Positions 5,863 to 32,065 of a stretch of 64,000 nucleotides of DNA are shown piece after piece (within the stretch, counting starts at the first letter, position 1; every line of letters begins with the position of its first letter). Source of the stretch: a virus; the IMG/VR virus record IMGVR_UViG_3300030104_004642, positions 32,001 through 96,000 of that record; one strand, written 5' to 3'. The notes under the pieces are model-generated. The model did not search any database and had not been told where the DNA came from. It was given only the letters and a program-made list of their open reading frames with translations. A program made the translations under genes and the position numbers.

Positions 5863-5985
5863 CTAATCGTGATTGTGTTCATCAAAAGAATCTGTCAAGT
5901 CCTTGGAAGGTGGTCCAAAGGACAAGTATATCCCATAGGATGTAAGTATGGCAAGACTCAGCATGATGATTACAATCAGATTCAT
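5863..5985 (-). CDS. psbN: Photosystem II biogenesis protein PsbN (40 aa)
   Basis: Manual translation MNLIVIIMLSLAILTSYGIYLSFGPPSKDLTDSFDEHNHD*: one TM helix plus the YxSFGPPS..L.D.F(D/E)EH PsbN signature; ATGA overlap with the regA stop. Confidence 0.85.
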   Translation of the reverse strand: MNLIVIIMLSLAILTSYGIYLSFGPPSKDLTDSFDEHNHD

Positions 5986-6419
5986 TCTGCTTCCTGAGTC
6001 TTTCCTTTCTTACCAATATTATACTTCTGCTCCAGGGTCCAATCGTTCTTATCCCTGTATGGCAGGACTTTGATCTGATTCAATGGAGCAATATCCATGA
6101 TTGAATCTTCCTTCACCACACTAATGAGGCCCCAGTCAGCAAGAAGGCGAGTAATACGATTCCTACGCTGAACGTCGTTAACAGTAATGTTAGCGTATTT
6201 GCCATCAAGAGCAAACAACTCCTTAAAATGCACTATGTAATATTTACCTTGCTTGTGCAAAATATGGCAGGATTGATAAAGTTTTTTCTCTTTTCGTGAA
6301 GCTACACCAATTCTTGTTAAGGTTTCCCTTACTTTGAGGAAGTCATCTGGTTCATTCAATATAATCTCAATCATTTTATCCTGAGACCAATGAACCTGAG
6401 GTTCAGTAGTTTGATTCAT
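5982..6419 (-). CDS. regA: Translational repressor RegA
   Basis: EPDDFLKVRETLTRIGVAS, LYQSCHILHKQGKYYIVHFKELF. Confidence 0.96.
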   Translation of the reverse strand: MNQTTEPQVHWSQDKMIEIILNEPDDFLKVRETLTRIGVASRKEKKLYQSCHILHKQGKYYIVHFKELFALDGKYANITVNDVQRRNRITRLLADWGLISVVKEDSIMDIAPLNQIKVLPYRDKNDWTLEQKYNIGKKGKTQEAE

Positions 6420-6784
6420 CTTTTACCACCAGTGTCAAGTTTTTGTTTAATAAAGAGTAATTGTTCATTGGACAAGATTTTCAAAACTTGTGCTGCCTTC
6501 TCATTACTATAACCATAGTATTTTTTGACAAACTCAAGGTCTGAGACCTTTTCTTTACGAACCCAAGGAGAGAATCTCTTCCTCTTTCTCAGTGTATTTA
6601 TGTAAAAATTATATTGCATGTCTTTATCTAAGAAATGATACTTGTTCATCTCATTAGCAAACAAAACACAATCCAGATGTCCAGATAGACACCTGTTCAC
6701 AATGTATGGTGGATACTCCTTAATGTCCTCACTAAGATCTTCCTTAGTAAAGTTGATAGAATTCAACCAGTCTTTCAGTTCCAA
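6416..6784 (-). CDS. g62: Clamp loader small subunit (gp62)
   Basis: YPPYIVNRCLS, ANEMN, YYGYSNEKA motifs; upstream of regA; TTG start. Confidence 0.92.
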   Translation of the reverse strand: MELKDWLNSINFTKEDLSEDIKEYPPYIVNRCLSGHLDCVLFANEMNKYHFLDKDMQYNFYINTLRKRKRFSPWVRKEKVSDLEFVKKYYGYSNEKAAQVLKILSNEQLLFIKQKLDTGGKR

Positions 6785-6939
6785 TGCCTAATCACCCCTG
6801 CAATAATAAAACAGTTAGTCGCCAAATAAGTAAAGAATATAAAAGTACGAAGAATAGCAACAGCATTATCGTATCTTTTCGTCTTGACATCAGAGAAACT
6901 ACCCAGTGTGTACTTCCACAGTCTCCATAATCTCTTCAT
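6775..6939 (-). CDS. Small membrane protein (54 aa)
   Basis: Manual translation MKRLWRLWKYTLGSFSDVKTKRYDNAVAILRTFIFFTYLATNCFIIAGVIRHWN*; C-terminal hydrophobic segment; fills the gap. Confidence 0.7.
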   Translation of the reverse strand: MKRLWRLWKYTLGSFSDVKTKRYDNAVAILRTFIFFTYLATNCFIIAGVIRHWN

Positions 6940-7318
6940 TGATATACCTCAAAAGTTCCTTGTCTTCAACATCATTTGGAATATCATTCTTATAGAAGAT
7001 CCTGTAACTATCAGAACCATACTTACCAATACCAAAGAGTTTGGTGGCATCCTCACCATCCCACTTAAGTATATCATGGGTCATACGCATGATACGATGT
7101 GCCCTGATGTTGAACATACCAAGTGGTTTGATAAAGTCAGAGAGACTATCATGCTGCCACACTTTAAGGAACTCCTCTGGTGTGGGTGTTATCTTGAATA
7201 GTTCTGTAAGGATTGGTTTTACCTGATTGCGTGATGTAAGGTTAAGACAGATGACACCAACCATGTGCTGCCATACATTATCAACCTGTTGTTGAACCAT
7301 CAGTTCTTCAACCATCAA
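6899..7318 (-). CDS. HhH-GPD DNA glycosylase, MBD4-like
   Basis: MVQ..W..MV..ICLN.TS, PLGM...RA.RI, HhH LFGIGKYGSDSYRIF and C-terminal VEDKEL..Y mirror the MBD4 catalytic domain as I recall it (LVQE, FLNRTS, PLGLYDLRA, LHGIGKYGNDSYRIF, PEDHKL..Y). Confidence 0.88.
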   Translation of the reverse strand: MMVEELMVQQQVDNVWQHMVGVICLNLTSRNQVKPILTELFKITPTPEEFLKVWQHDSLSDFIKPLGMFNIRAHRIMRMTHDILKWDGEDATKLFGIGKYGSDSYRIFYKNDIPNDVEDKELLRYINEEIMETVEVHTG

Positions 7319-8216
7319 CCAGACCCTCCTTTTTCAATCTATTGAAATTGTAGCATCCTTCAAAGGTAAGTTGAACCTTTGGTTTCTTACCATAATTCAT
7401 AAGCAGAAGTTCTTTTCTTTCCTTCTGCTCTCTCATATATTTACCAACAGACCTGAGTGTATATGTATGTTCAAACTCTGCCATATTCCATTCCTGGAAT
7501 CTATCCTTTACTAACTGTCCTGAGTTGTAGGAGACAAGCATATTGATACTACAATCAGAGCAATCACGAGAAAAAGTGTCATGGTTGAATCCTTTATGCA
7601 TACTTCCTTTTTTTCCATATAAACTATCCTTAATGGCATAGGGTGGGTCCAGATAGATGAATGACTTCCTCTCAGAGTATTCATCCATTAATGCTTCATA
7701 GGACAGGTTTGTGATATTCCAGTTTTCAATAATCTTCTGGAAACCTGGAAGTCTATCAATACCCCTCTGAGTAAAATTGTTTTGTGATGCCATCTTAGAG
7801 AAGGAAGATGACTCAGTTAGACCAGAAAAAGAGCACTTATTTACAATATAAAATGCACATGCCTTGGCAAAATCATTAACACTATCATCATTAAGATGAC
7901 CCTTTGATGAATTGAATAACAACTTACACTTGTCAGGGTTATCATGAAACCTTTTAAGTGAACCAAGAAAATCCCTCATCTCATCACCTTTCTCCTGGAG
8001 TTGTTGCCAGAAGTTGGTTAGTGGTTTATATAAATCATTGACCCAGATGTTCAAATGAGGATACATCTTAGTCAAATGAATTGCTACTGAACCACCACCT
8101 AAAAATGGTTCCCTATATTCTTGATAATCAGTTAGATCAGGAATGTGGGGAACAATTTTAGTGAGAGCACGTGACTTACCACCAGGATAACGAAGAGGGG
8201 TTTTCAAAGATTTCAT
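7308..8216 (-). CDS. dam: DNA adenine methyltransferase (Dam/D12 class)
   Basis: LRYPGGKS, EPFLGGGSV, WVNDL, YLDPPY motifs. Confidence 0.93.
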   Translation of the reverse strand: MKSLKTPLRYPGGKSRALTKIVPHIPDLTDYQEYREPFLGGGSVAIHLTKMYPHLNIWVNDLYKPLTNFWQQLQEKGDEMRDFLGSLKRFHDNPDKCKLLFNSSKGHLNDDSVNDFAKACAFYIVNKCSFSGLTESSSFSKMASQNNFTQRGIDRLPGFQKIIENWNITNLSYEALMDEYSERKSFIYLDPPYAIKDSLYGKKGSMHKGFNHDTFSRDCSDCSINMLVSYNSGQLVKDRFQEWNMAEFEHTYTLRSVGKYMREQKERKELLLMNYGKKPKVQLTFEGCYNFNRLKKEGLVDG

Positions 8217-8218
8217 AA

Positions 8219-8485
8219 TCAGTGGATATAGTATTCAAAATTAAAGAAAGAGGAACTATGCATGAAACTTGTGCCATGATGCCCAAAACCTGATCCCCCA
8301 TGGGTGTGCTTATGGTAGTGGCAGTATCCCCTGTTTCTATGGCAGTGATGATGCTTGTGAGATGGCATCCAGTTGCGATGGGTGTGTGGGCGATGGGGAT
8401 GATGTTTATATCTATTTGCCTTGTGTGCCATGGCTGGTGTGCTAAGAAGCATACTACCAGCTAATACCAAGAGTAACTTTTTCAC
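8219..8485 (-). CDS. Exported His-rich small protein
   Basis: Signal peptide ending in PAMA; 19 His in the 68-aa mature part; GAGG RBS before the GTG start. Confidence 0.8.
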   Translation of the reverse strand: MKKLLLVLAGSMLLSTPAMAHKANRYKHHPHRPHTHRNWMPSHKHHHCHRNRGYCHYHKHTHGGSGFGHHGTSFMHSSSFFNFEYYIH

Positions 8486-8646
8486 TCAATTACCTCTAAT
8501 AAATTGTTTACAGAATTGGACAGTGATCTATATCCTGTGCCAACATAAATCTGACCTACCACCACTGAAACAGTAGCAACACTCCAGAATATGTAGTACC
8601 ACCTACTCTTGACTTGATGTTTTTTGCCTTGTTTCTTCGTCTTCAT
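8482..8646 (-). CDS. Small membrane protein (54 aa)
   Basis: Manual translation MKTKKQGKKHQVKSRWYYIFWSVATVSVVVGQIYVGTGYRSLSNSVNNLLEVIE*; GTGA overlap with the next gene. Confidence 0.7.
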   Translation of the reverse strand: MKTKKQGKKHQVKSRWYYIFWSVATVSVVVGQIYVGTGYRSLSNSVNNLLEVIE

Positions 8647-8791
8647 AAGTAATGGAAATTCTTTTTTTCACATATCCCTTAGAGTCTATCACAAGACACT
8701 TATTAATACAACAGTTGTCAAGTGCCTCTTCAATATTCTGTAACTGCATATGCAGCATCAGATTCCTATCATGCTCACTCAGTCTTTTCAT
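8603..8791 (-). CDS. Hypothetical protein
   Basis: 62-aa ORF in a tightly packed cluster. Confidence 0.6.
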   Translation of the reverse strand: MKRLSEHDRNLMLHMQLQNIEEALDNCCINKCLVIDSKGYVKKRISITYEDEETRQKTSSQE

Positions 8792-8975
8792 TGTAGTATG
8801 CTATGGTTTTGTGGAACTCTTCCAGTGGATCAGGATATTTATCAGGATATTGAATCCTGTTTATCCTATCCTTGAACTCTTTTAGTTCTGGGATATGCAT
8901 GTACCCAAGAACATCAATGAGTGCTATAAGTTCATCTTCATCCAACTGGATGTTACGAATGCCATAGTGTTTCAT
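8775..8975 (-). CDS. Hypothetical protein
   Basis: 66-aa ORF overlapping the purS stop. Confidence 0.65.
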   Translation of the reverse strand: MKHYGIRNIQLDEDELIALIDVLGYMHIPELKEFKDRINRIQYPDKYPDPLEEFHKTIAYYNEKTE

Positions 8976-9247
8976 TTAACCCCCTGAGGCCATTCTTCAA
9001 TCTCCACCAAATCATAATCCCAATCCTCAATAACAGGATTAGCATACAGACGATCAGAAAGAAGGTCCAGTTCTTTTCTTGCTATCTCCTCAGTCTCTGC
9101 TTCCAACCAAACATCAATCACCTTACCCAGTCTAAGCTTCTTGATATTCAAATCAGACAGTCTTCTTGATGCATCCCTCACAGCATTGCCTGGTGAATCA
9201 TCAACCTGTGATCTCAAACGAATAAACACCAACCCTTTAAACTTCAT
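8972..9247 (-). CDS. purS: Phosphoribosylformylglycinamidine synthase subunit PurS
   Basis: V.IRLR..V.D.PG.AV, LRLGK.ID, LYANPVIED.DY PurS pattern. Confidence 0.88.
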   Translation of the reverse strand: MKFKGLVFIRLRSQVDDSPGNAVRDASRRLSDLNIKKLRLGKVIDVWLEAETEEIARKELDLLSDRLYANPVIEDWDYDLVEIEEWPQGVK

Positions 9248-9407
9248 TCTCTAACTCCTGGATGATTCTTGCTACTTGTTTTTTATTTGTTCCAGAAGGC
9301 GCATTATGCAGACAGATGAGAATACATTCTTTATCAGTGATGGGTGGTTTCATTGTCCACCCATTCTCATCAAGTAGAACCTCTGGTGCCTCAACATTTT
9401 CTGTCAA
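9237..9407 (-). CDS. Hypothetical protein (56 aa)
   Basis: TTG start after AAGGAGG; MTENVEAPEVLLDENGWTMKPPITDKECILICLHNAPSGTNKKQVARIIQELENEV*. Confidence 0.65.
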   Translation of the reverse strand: MTENVEAPEVLLDENGWTMKPPITDKECILICLHNAPSGTNKKQVARIIQELENEV

Positions 9408-9601
9408 AATCCCCCTCCTTTTGATTTTTTCTTCTTTGGTTTTGATTTAGGTAAGATTTTTTTCATTTCCTCTTCTGAGTAATTGGCACAGAGAGAAAGC
9501 ATCTTATCAAGAGCATACTGATACTGAGAACCAGCACTCATCTTACTGAGTAGATGGTGTGCTACATCATACCTTAGTTCTTCAAGTTCTTTTTCATTCA
9601 C
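9404..9601 (-). CDS. Hypothetical protein
   Basis: 65-aa ORF with a basic KKKKSKGGGF tail; overlaps the g44 stop. Confidence 0.65.
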   Translation of the reverse strand: MNEKELEELRYDVAHHLLSKMSAGSQYQYALDKMLSLCANYSEEEMKKILPKSKPKKKKSKGGGF

Positions 9602-10545
9602 TTGAACTCACACTCCACCATAATCTCAGTGAGACATGCCAGCATGTTTATTTCCTGATCAGCAACGAAAGAAGATTGGTATTGATACTTAGCAATGATA
9701 AGAACAGCAGCAGCAATGCCAGAACCTTCCAAGGACTGATAAGAAGCATCATAAACAGACCTAAGAAGTACAGTAGGATCATTGTCCAGATTATCGACGA
9801 CCCACTTACGTACCTTAGGAAAGTCTTTTTCTTTGAGCGTTTTAAAGAGGTCATCAGTTTTTACATTAGAAAAGGAAGCAAGGATGCCAGAGTCAATACT
9901 ACCACCAGCAGCATATCTCTGACATTCATTAAGAACACGTCTCCAATCAGGAAAGTGTTTCTGAATAAGTTCTACCAGGACCTTGTTATCATATTTAATA
10001 CCTTCTGCATCCAAGATTTCTTGGAGACGTGTGAAGAATGATGCTGCAAGTAACTGCTTTTCTTTTCCTTTGAGGGCAAAGTCAATGACTGAGCATCTGC
10101 TATGAAGGGGTTGAATGATTTTGTTTTTGTAGTTGCAGGTGAAGATGAATCTGCAATTACCAATAAACTCCTCTGTAAACGCCCTAAGGCAGAGTTGAAC
10201 ATCTGGGGTTGTGTTATCTGCCTCATCAATAATGATGACCTTGTGTTTGGCAGAAGAAGATAGCGATACAGTTGAAGCGAAGTTCTTTGCATTATTACGT
10301 ACAGTGTCTAAGAATCTACCCTCATCAGAACCATTGATAACATAGTAATCTGTGCCTAATTCAGCACAGAGTGCCTTAGCAACTGTGGTCTTACCACAAC
10401 CTGGTGGTCCTGATAGGAGAAGGTTAGGAACCTCCCCCTTATCTAGGAAATCAATAAAAGTGCTCTTAATATTTTTAGGAAGAATGCACTCTTCAATTTT
10501 CTTTGGGCGATACTTCTCTACCCAAATAAACTCATCACGACTCAT
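9598..10545 (-). CDS. g44: Clamp loader large subunit (gp44)
   Basis: WVEKYRP, GPPGCGKT, IIDEAD, LHSRC motifs. Confidence 0.96.
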   Translation of the reverse strand: MSRDEFIWVEKYRPKKIEECILPKNIKSTFIDFLDKGEVPNLLLSGPPGCGKTTVAKALCAELGTDYYVINGSDEGRFLDTVRNNAKNFASTVSLSSSAKHKVIIIDEADNTTPDVQLCLRAFTEEFIGNCRFIFTCNYKNKIIQPLHSRCSVIDFALKGKEKQLLAASFFTRLQEILDAEGIKYDNKVLVELIQKHFPDWRRVLNECQRYAAGGSIDSGILASFSNVKTDDLFKTLKEKDFPKVRKWVVDNLDNDPTVLLRSVYDASYQSLEGSGIAAAVLIIAKYQYQSSFVADQEINMLACLTEIMVECEFK

Positions 10546-27160: not shown

Positions 27161-28810
27161 TTATATTTCCCCACCCTTGGGTGTTTCAAATTTGGTCTCA
27201 TCAACCTCAGGTGCTTGGGGAGTAGCACCCAATAAACCACCTGTTGTATCACCAGGTGCAGGTGCGATTGGTTGTCCAGTAGCAGGATCAACATCCATCT
27301 GACTTGGATCAGGGATTACACCATCCTTGATTTCCTTCTCAATCAGTGCGTCCTGTTCCTCAATCTCAATATCAGTCTGTCTCAGAATCTTACGTCTTAC
27401 AAAATCATTAGAGTAATACTTACCAACATATGGTTCAGCAAGTGCTGCAAGATTGAGTCTTTCAGTGGTAAGTTCTGCCTCTTTGAGTTCAGCAAAGTGA
27501 TTATCATAGAGGAAGTCATACTGAATATGATCAGACATCTTCTCCCAATCTTCTGGGGTGCAGACATTTTTCAGAAGAAGTTGTGTTTTCAGAAGATCCT
27601 GGAACATATGAGAGAATCTCTTTCTCATTCTTCCAACAAACTTGGAGAACTTGATCTCATCCCTCAGGATCTCTGATGATCTGCCCAGTGAGAAACCACC
27701 CTCTCCCTGAATTCTTGTTTCAGGAACATTCAGGGATCTGTACAACTTCTGTTGAAAGTAGTTGATGTCAGTGATCTCTCCAAGATTCTGACCACCAGGA
27801 AGTGTGGTGATTTCAGTGCCCCTGCCACCCTCTCTTCTTGGCAACCAGAAGTCCTCCATCATGGACATATGCTTCTTATCATCCCTTATCTCACCAGTGT
27901 TGGAGTCATACACCAACTTGTTTCTATAACGCATCATCACATCACGCAGGTATTGCTCTGCTTTTACCTTGGGCAGGTTACCAACATCAATGTAGAAGAT
28001 TCTTCTTTCTGGTGCCCTTGAAAGTCTGTAGATAACAAGAGAGTCCTCAATCATCATCAACTGATTAAGAGGTTTGATTGCTTTGTGCATCCAAGAGAGT
28101 GTTGCTCCCTTGTTTCTATCCACCAGTCCTGAGGTGCAATAGCAGATTGAATCCCTAGTAAGTTTTACACCACCTGCCCTTTGCTGTGTGCCATATCCAG
28201 TCTGCTTACCTCCATCAGTATAGACAAAGTATTCTTCAATAGGTGGGAATTGGAATCCATCATCACCTTGTTTGATGTATATTCCATCACCTTTCTTTTT
28301 GACAATCTGTCTTACATAACGCATCTTAGATGCATCAATGTATCTCAGTTCTTGAATACCATCCTCTGGTTTCTTCTGATCAATGACCTTATTGTAGTAC
28401 AGTCTTCCATCAATATACCAATTCCTGAAAATCTCATGTGCCTTGGTGTCAAAATCAAGGAGATCAAGAATATATCTAAACTCTTCTCTAATTTTTTTCT
28501 TGATGCCATCACTAGCATTTAAATTTGATAGTTCAATCTCAACAGGTGAATCATTAGTATCAGAAACAATTGCTTCATTAACAATATCCTCAATAGCACT
28601 ATCACATTCAGGATACAATGACATGGACCTGTATCTTCTGATCAGATCATTCTCATTCTTATAGATTCCTTCAATATCTACATAAGAGCCAAAAAAACCA
28701 GAGCTAATATAGTTCTCTGACCCATCCTGATTATTGGGGGGTACAGGAGATACTAGCCCTGGTGGTTGCTTCTCAGAATCTTCAATTGAGAAACCAAATA
28801 ATCTTGCCAT
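27161..28810 (-). CDS. g20: Portal protein (gp20)
   Basis: WYIDGRL, RAPERRIFYIDVGNLP, EDFWLPRREGGRGTEI. Confidence 0.98.
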   Translation of the reverse strand: MARLFGFSIEDSEKQPPGLVSPVPPNNQDGSENYISSGFFGSYVDIEGIYKNENDLIRRYRSMSLYPECDSAIEDIVNEAIVSDTNDSPVEIELSNLNASDGIKKKIREEFRYILDLLDFDTKAHEIFRNWYIDGRLYYNKVIDQKKPEDGIQELRYIDASKMRYVRQIVKKKGDGIYIKQGDDGFQFPPIEEYFVYTDGGKQTGYGTQQRAGGVKLTRDSICYCTSGLVDRNKGATLSWMHKAIKPLNQLMMIEDSLVIYRLSRAPERRIFYIDVGNLPKVKAEQYLRDVMMRYRNKLVYDSNTGEIRDDKKHMSMMEDFWLPRREGGRGTEITTLPGGQNLGEITDINYFQQKLYRSLNVPETRIQGEGGFSLGRSSEILRDEIKFSKFVGRMRKRFSHMFQDLLKTQLLLKNVCTPEDWEKMSDHIQYDFLYDNHFAELKEAELTTERLNLAALAEPYVGKYYSNDFVRRKILRQTDIEIEEQDALIEKEIKDGVIPDPSQMDVDPATGQPIAPAPGDTTGGLLGATPQAPEVDETKFETPKGGEI

Positions 28811-31834: not shown

Positions 31835-32065
31835 CTACCAATCTGGATACTGCCAATCAACAAATGGTGTCTTTTTCTTTCTTGACTCTATGATTCTATT
31901 AATAGTACATCCCTTACATTCATAAGAATAGGAGGACGCCACAGGTCCTCTATCTTTTCTTGTCCTGTAAAAACTATCTACTAAATTCATCTCCTTCTCA
32001 CAAACCCTACACACCCTTGTGTCAAGTAAGAGATGACCTAATTTTATCTGCTCGTCAAAATCCAT
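31835..32065 (-). CDS. Small zinc-ribbon protein
   Basis: CRVC...ECKGC; likely start MDFDEQ at 32065. Confidence 0.7.
   Translation of the reverse strand: MDFDEQIKLGHLLLDTRVCRVCEKEMNLVDSFYRTRKDRGPVASSYSYECKGCTINRIIESRKKKTPFVDWQYPDW

Follow-up and report, generated by a model that had tools for sequence, protein, structure and literature searches.

A predicted stand-alone MBD4-type DNA glycosylase encoded by a T4-like cyanophage with CpG-depleted DNA

The Locus

The DNA analysed in this study is a window of 64,000 nucleotides (nt), positions 32,001–96,000 of the IMG/VR virus record IMGVR_UViG_3300030104_004642, which derives from an uncultured marine T4-like cyanophage, is 115 kb long and represents ~60% of the genome; the whole record is referred to as G000, and relatives fetched for comparison carry labels beginning with L. 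On the minus strand at 6899–7318 the window contains an open reading frame (ORF) of 139 amino acids (aa) when read from TTG 7318, or 138 aa from ATG 7315, whose product is described here as a predicted DNA glycosylase of the MBD4 type. ATG 7315 is the likely start, as a strong Shine-Dalgarno sequence lies 9 nt upstream of it and the database cluster representative is also 138 aa long. Counted from this ATG, the gene overlaps the end of a dam-like methylase gene (stop codon 7310–7308) by 8 nt; an overlap of its start with the dam stop had been noticed in a first-pass annotation of this DNA. The features concerned are:

6899–7315, minus strand: predicted stand-alone MBD4-type helix-hairpin-helix (HhH) DNA glycosylase gene (ORF, PDB matches, AlphaFold2 model, Foldseek, ratio of nonsynonymous to synonymous substitution rates (dN/dS))
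7325–7331, minus strand: Shine-Dalgarno sequence AAGGAGG within the 3' end of dam, ahead of ATG 7315 (read from the sequence)
7308–8216, minus strand: D12-class N6-adenine DNA methyltransferase, Dam-like, with a DPPY motif (PF02086, E 2e-31; phrog_56, E 6e-86)

Family and Fold

When all PDB chains were searched using phmmer, the best solved relatives by sequence were 15 entries of the MBD4 glycosylase domain, matching residues 12–125 of the query with E values of 6e-15 to 8e-14, and endonuclease III trailed at E 1e-3. The AlphaFold2 model, built on a 60-sequence family alignment, has a mean predicted local distance difference test (pLDDT) score of 90 and a predicted template modelling (pTM) score of 0.84, and in a Foldseek comparison of this model with the PDB, ranks 1–16 were all occupied by MBD4 (TM-score 0.70–0.81, 27–33% identity, E 2e-6), followed by MIG (1kea) at E 1e-3 and then by endonuclease III and MutY. 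The protein contains a single cysteine, and thus no motif for a 4Fe-4S cluster.

The human and mouse MBD4 glycosylase domains (PDB 4e9e, 3iho, 6vjw, 4evv, 1ngn) have the same fold, likewise without an Fe-S cluster, and share with the phage protein the Val-Gln pair that reads the base, the intercalating loop (LN-TS), the wedge loop (PLG), the tyrosine of GIGKYG in place of the lyase lysine, and the catalytic aspartate. Unlike MBD4, the protein is phage-encoded and has neither the N-terminal methyl-CpG-binding domain nor a linker, its 138 aa corresponding to the glycosylase domain alone. Mig.MthI (MIG, 1kea), endonuclease III and MutY have the HhH-GPD fold and the catalytic aspartate in common with it, and MIG also removes T opposite G, but these enzymes possess a 4Fe-4S cluster domain and ~210–350 aa, and they score more weakly in both sequence and fold (Foldseek E no better than 1e-3, compared with 2e-6 for MBD4); the four-cysteine Fe-S loop is missing here, and a tyrosine stands where Nth has its catalytic HhH lysine. 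Sequence and modelled fold therefore confirm the predicted identity of the ORF as a stand-alone MBD4-type HhH-GPD glycosylase, as opposed to an Nth, MutY or MIG enzyme. The first-pass annotation, which had recognised a compact MBD4-like catalytic domain without the Fe-S cysteine motif and distinct from Nth and MutY, was right in every detail that could be checked. It extends the known MBD4 glycosylase family by one new and uncharacterised member.

Active-Site Residues

The residues of the phage protein correspond to those of human MBD4 as follows:

V8-Q9: Val448-Gln449 (PDB alignment)
L25-N26-L27-T28-S29: Leu466-Asn467-Arg468-Thr469-Ser470 (PDB alignment)
L66-G67-M68: Leu506-Gly507-Leu508
Y100 (in GIGKYG): Tyr540 (PDB alignment)
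E118-D119: Glu559-Asp560 (PDB alignment)

In MBD4, Gln449 reads N3/O2 of the flipped thymine, the mutant Q449A being inactive, whilst the main chain of Val448 and Tyr540 read the O4 and O2 carbonyls of the base and Asp560 is the catalytic residue; the gap vacated by the flipped base is filled by Arg468, and main-chain carbonyls at residues 468 and 506 read the orphan guanine (PMC3479182). Alignment to the MBD4 structures agrees with the earlier reading that the VQ pair, the HhH tyrosine and the catalytic aspartate (in VED) are kept in the phage protein. In the 60-sequence family alignment G67, G96, G98, D119 and L122 are invariant, and W16, L25, N26, R72, Y100 (≥90%), D103 and F108 are nearly so; Q9 is invariant in a further alignment of 11 sequences. 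Because Nth has its lyase lysine where this protein has tyrosine, sequence comparison predicts a monofunctional enzyme.

The differences from MBD4 include the replacement of Arg468 by leucine, of Leu508 by methionine, of Gly471 by arginine and of His561 by lysine. The first of these, noted originally as a change of the arginine finger from NRTS to NLTS, is real, and it proves to be a common natural variant across the family. Among 150 representatives of 50%-identity clusters, position 27 is occupied in short stand-alone forms by Gln (34), Leu (17), Arg (9) or Lys (4), and in long multi-domain eukaryotic-type forms by Lys (23) or Arg (9); of the long forms, one was identified as a protein of a streptophyte alga and another as MBD4 from an insect. 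Leucine is found at this position in all ten of the closest cyanophage copies, in phage S-TIM54 and in phage Xp12, and glutamine in 90 of 93 motif-bearing marine copies that are 59–71% identical. In a tree of 92 representatives, which is poorly resolved, the long eukaryotic-type forms cluster and position 27 changes often. Leucine is thus a common natural state and not a lesion, and since the position varies between Gln, Leu, Arg and Lys, the arginine finger does not define the family. Reading of the guanine need not depend on the arginine side chain either, because MBD4 uses main-chain carbonyls for this purpose.

Evidence for a Working Gene

Comparison of the glycosylase gene with six relatives gave dN/dS of 0.08–0.11 at synonymous divergences (dS) of 0.33–0.65, demonstrating purifying selection. 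The gene contains 3 CG dinucleotides against 16.7 expected, and being itself CpG-poor it has been long resident in a CpG-poor lineage. At least five studies have yielded metagenomes that contain the stretch. In two metatranscriptome runs, contigs of 151–262 nt (depth ~2.7, ~93–97% identical) cover parts of the gene, for which carry-over of DNA is a possible source.

Gene Neighbourhood and the Variable Slot

The glycosylase gene lies within a co-oriented run of replication genes, the minus-strand order being gp44, seven small ORFs, dam, glycosylase, phrog_1679 ORF, gp62, regA and hsp20. Besides dam, the neighbouring features are:

6775–6939, minus strand: 54-aa ORF of unknown function (phrog_1679, E 8e-27)
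6416–6784, minus strand: clamp-loader subunit gp62, which bounds the variable slot on its downstream side (PF16790, E 1e-10; phrog_225, E 4e-49)
5982–6419, minus strand: RegA translational repressor (PF01818, E 4e-45)
9598–10545, minus strand: clamp loader gp44, at the upstream end of the co-oriented run of replication genes (similar to genes annotated as sliding clamp loader in Bellamy, S-SM2 and others)

From regA to gp44 (5982–10545), 11 of the 12 gene junctions overlap, by 4–44 nt, so the overlap between dam and the glycosylase gene says nothing about functional coupling. One of the others is the 41-nt overlap of the start of the phrog_1679 ORF with the non-conserved C-terminal tail of the glycosylase. 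The phrog_1679 ORF is also present in loci L014–L016, and in L103 and L104 without the glycosylase.

IMG/VR holds 117 stretches encoding relatives, the best 80 of which were examined as loci. The order dam-glycosylase-gp62 was found in just five of these 80 (L014–L018), where the glycosylase is 92–95% identical and the overlap and internal Shine-Dalgarno sequence are kept. In a sixth locus, L019 (92% identical), the glycosylase gene sits with purM between the halves of a split family-B DNA polymerase; the arrangement there (L019:1079–5234) consists of polymerase genes of 486 aa and 388 aa, between which are the MBD4-type gene, the purM-like gene and a 72-aa ORF. The other 74 loci (57–69% identical) have no dam nearby.

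The slot between dam and gp62 also varies among close relatives. In L103 and L104, whose regA is 97% identical, it contains no glycosylase gene, and phrog_1679 with an ORF of 272–282 aa is found instead; in phages Bellamy and P-TIM68, dam is directly followed by gp62. In two metatranscriptome runs, long contigs carry 1,082 other letters in place of window positions 6541–8173, which cover part of gp62, the phrog_1679 ORF, the glycosylase gene and dam, another sign that co-occurring relatives are not alike in the content of this slot. In run X3, positions 7315 and 8175 are joined on a DNA contig that skips dam. From these comparisons, the slot is seen to be a mosaic in which dam and the glycosylase gene do not travel as a unit. 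The 272–282-aa slot ORF (L018:2269–3096, L103:453–1301, L104:1263–2081) gave a sub-threshold match to Methyltransf_24 (E 0.003) and none to a PHROG family, and is absent from G000.

Distribution of the Family

The family is large and patchily distributed. The protein database returned 5,569 matches of similar length, many of them copies from marine samples that are 57–69% identical, and an exhaustive search returned 1,130 cluster representatives at E ≤ 1e-3, of which 203 were at E ≤ 1e-10. Several of the 57–69% identical copies lie on long contigs of up to 182 kb that CheckV estimates to be 11–50% complete (e.g. L026, L040, L061 and L071), and the largest such IMG/VR contigs imply phages of ~360 kb. 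In one of them (L058:5927–14853) the glycosylase is accompanied by GTP cyclohydrolase I (FolE), a phosphoribosyltransferase, ClpP, a HIT protein, a 2-oxoglutarate (2OG) oxygenase and a 5'-3' exonuclease, together with a weak radical-SAM match below the Pfam cut-off; of these, FolE, the oxygenase and the radical-SAM match hint at base modification. In prokaryotes, a profile from the 11-sequence alignment matched eight contigs of metagenome-assembled genomes (MAGs) among 185,579 species genomes. L095, a contig of 335 kb that had been binned with a Neomarinimicrobiota MAG, may itself be a phage of the ~360-kb type. No published work on the stand-alone phage family was found, including in the literature on MBD4 and cyanophages.

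CpG Depletion

The genome-wide loss of CpG reported earlier is genuine. Over the 115 kb of G000, the observed/expected ratio (o/e) of CpG is 0.12 and that of TpG/CpA 1.37; every 2.5-kb window has a CpG o/e of ≤0.30, and all 16 NCGN contexts are depleted (≤0.21), with YCGR at 0.01–0.02. Prochlorococcus phage P-TIM68 (complete, 197 kb) has a CpG o/e of 0.13 in a 50-kb sample (KM359505.1, 105000–154999) with the same context pattern (YCGR 0.00–0.03), and its complete genome contains no C5-cytosine methylase and no MBD4-type gene, showing that depletion is independent of both. Nor does depletion follow the glycosylase gene in other phages, as CpG o/e is 0.28–0.63 in the carriers L014–L018, 0.18–0.20 in the non-carriers L103 and L104, mostly 0.6–0.9 (0.34–0.88) on the remaining contigs with 57–69% identical copies, and 0.79 in S-TIM54. 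No C5 methylase was found on carrier contigs in 16 IMG/VR records or in MAGs G017 and G020. CpG depletion therefore characterises a sub-lineage of cyanophages and depends neither on the glycosylase gene nor on any phage C5 methylase that can be recognised.

Substitutions among G000 and L014–L018 showed that residual CpGs do not change faster than other C/G sites (13–62 sites), and that transitions creating a CpG occur 3–4 times less often than their counterparts at other sites (p 4e-4 to 4e-6), an observation compatible both with selection against CpG and with rapid loss of newly formed CpGs. A search of the literature on phage CpG depletion found nothing relevant.

Among other short words, GC-containing palindromes are also under-represented in G000 relative to Markov expectation, namely AGCT (0.28), GGCC (0.30), TGCA (0.45), and CTAG and GTAC (0.47), and GpC stands at 0.74 in its clade and above 1 in most other carriers. 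A second DNA methyltransferase gene, with a TSPPY motif IV, lies on the minus strand at 27770–28375 of G000, ~4 kb before the start of the window (PF01555, E 7e-32); such motifs are typical of N4-cytosine methylases. Its closest homologue is in P-TIM68 (77% identity over the 79 residues compared).

Xp12-Like Phages

A tblastn search of 50,697 records of deposited phages found the gene in 14, being S-TIM54 and 13 records of eight Xp12-like Bradleyvirinae (Xp12, YB23, MET13-T1, Ep029, FMYAK-P1, DoCa6, AXL_1 and Donnerlittchen). The Xp12 protein (QNN97216.1, 160 aa, annotated as "hypothetical protein") and its homologues are phage-borne stand-alone MBD4-type proteins ~30% identical to the one described here, with the Gln, Tyr and Asp kept and leucine at the Arg468 position. 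In Xp12 and its seven relatives the gene adjoins those for an HAD hydrolase, a ThyA-like dCMP methylase, a deaminase and DHFR, and in Xp12 and Donnerlittchen it lies directly upstream of genes for an HAD protein or pyrophosphohydrolase, homologues of ThyA and of dCMP deaminase, and DHFR; the cyanophage copy does not share this fixed setting. According to the literature, 5-methylcytosine (5mC) replaces all cytosine in Xp12 DNA (a finding credited to Ehrlich 1975), the Xp12 ThyA homologue makes 5-methyl-dCMP, and deaminases linked in this way are 5mC-selective. Since every deamination in all-5mC DNA yields a T:G pair, invisible to uracil-DNA glycosylase (UDG), an MBD4-type enzyme would fit well in Xp12. 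No publication was found that notes the MBD4-type gene beside the 5mC pathway of Xp12.

The association is a loose one, as the ThyA homologue occurs in 74 records against 13 for the glycosylase, phage PaMx74 is reported to be fully 5mC-substituted yet has no glycosylase, and in the S-TIM5 group all four phages have a C5 methylase and S-TIM54 alone the glycosylase. Gene placement supports a link to cytosine methylation for the Xp12 group; in this cyanophage such a link is unproven and rather disfavoured.

Discussion

The preferred reading, to which a probability of roughly 0.6 is given, is that of a functional MBD4-branch enzyme, monofunctional and acting on T, U or 5-substituted U opposite G, which is encoded by an accessory gene uncoupled from Dam. 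The enzyme would flip out and excise such bases, the deamination products of 5mC or cytosine, from double-stranded DNA, leaving an abasic site to host or phage enzymes for the remaining repair. To judge from the sequence, T/U:G mismatch repair on replicating phage DNA is its most likely role. The gene would have landed in the variable dam-gp62 slot inside the co-oriented run from gp44 to regA, and from this position it is probably produced together with the replication proteins.

Several points weigh against this reading. The Arg468 that locks the flipped base in MBD4 is Leu27 here, and Gly471 of the pocket is Arg30, and the proposed substrate is drawn from eukaryotic enzymes only 27–33% identical. 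The Pfam HhH-GPD profile (PF00730) scores 22.9 bits, below its gathering cut-off of 26.2, and the ORF matches no PHROG family; a precomputed PF00730 match is present in most of the 59–71% identical homologues. Close relatives do without the gene. Moreover, the 115 kb contains no C5 methylase (PF00145), ThyA-like gene (PF00303), UDG or Xth-type apurinic/apyrimidinic endonuclease, so that no source of 5mC and no downstream repair steps were identified there.

The alternative that survives best, though it is unlikely, is a narrowed form of the one raised in the first-pass annotation, namely that the glycosylase serves a 5mC state of this phage's DNA as its repair arm, correcting T:G pairs that arise from deamination of 5mCpG, with CpG methylated by the host or by an unseen phage enzyme and the loss of CpG left as a mutational scar. 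In its favour, CpG is depleted in all NCGN contexts and TpG/CpA is in excess, the other isolates with the gene are S-TIM54, which has a C5 methylase, and the Xp12-like phages, in which it adjoins the 5mC-synthesis genes, C5-modified cytosine calls for an enzyme of the MBD4 type and not of the UDG type, and ~40% of this genome is unseen. The absence of PF00145 and PF00303 genes from the 115 kb argues against it, as do the equal depletion of P-TIM68, the lack of the gene from the slot of the CpG-poor L103 and L104, the higher CpG o/e of most carriers, the S-TIM5 group and PaMx74, and residual CpGs that are not hypermutable within the clade. The general idea is favoured by the gene placement in Xp12-like phages; its application to this phage is not.

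Slightly less probable again is a different or broader job, such as excising oxidised or alkylated pyrimidines, countering a host cytosine-deaminase defence by removing U, or nicking the host's DNA wherever bases are mispaired or modified, thereby aiding its breakdown. The departures from MBD4 at positions 27 and 30, a patchy, mobile distribution typical of defence, counter-defence or niche genes, the lack of a phage UDG in the 115 kb and the nucleotide-modification-like neighbours on contigs of the ~360-kb phages would all agree with this, but the protein retains the T/U-reading Val-Gln, Tyr and Asp, all of which show little or no variation within the family, and there is no defence-related neighbour in the window.

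That Dam and the glycosylase form a methylation-damage module was the remaining part of the earlier interpretation; this reading, in which the 8-nt overlap would link the two in translation and function, is very improbable and has been rejected, for despite the overlap retained in L014–L018 and the precedents of a mismatch enzyme beside a methylase (Vsr-dcm, Mig-M.MthTI), the partner is an N6-adenine enzyme whose product, N6-methyladenine, gives no T:G, Dam is 63–79% identical across L014–L018 against 92–95% for the glycosylase, the gene occurs without dam in L019, S-TIM54 and the 74 other loci, and overlaps are ordinary in this run. In Escherichia coli, the gene for the T:G mismatch enzyme Vsr overlaps the 3' end of the DNA methylase gene dcm. 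Vsr differs from the enzyme described here in being an endonuclease of another fold that accompanies a C5-cytosine methylase; in the cyanophage no such partner and no conserved linkage are found.

The striking CpG depletion of this lineage is not accounted for by the glycosylase and needs a separate explanation, for which P-TIM68 offers a cultured, tractable isolate. A wider proposal is that stand-alone MBD4-type glycosylases are a phage answer to C5-modified cytosine, supplying a T:G (or 5-hydroxymethyluracil:G) repair arm that UDG cannot, as suggested by their fixed position next to 5mC-synthesis genes in Xp12-like phages, and that in this lineage the gene is the mark of DNA methylated at CpG by the host or by an unrecognised enzyme. 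This is speculative and unlikely, but if true, it would constitute a virus-borne counterpart of the vertebrate axis of CpG methylation, deamination and MBD4, the lineage's CpG o/e of 0.12–0.13 being in the vertebrate range or lower.

Glycosylases of the MBD4 type are known from eukaryotes, where they are tied to CpG methylation, and the present results add a large stand-alone branch that is carried almost only by phages. The placement of the gene next to the 5mC-pathway genes of Xp12 offers a concrete, testable role for the family, and these compact candidate T:G glycosylases, free of an Fe-S cluster and with natural Gln, Leu, Arg and Lys variants at the intercalating position, may serve as material for studying and engineering the readout of mismatches and of 5mC deamination.

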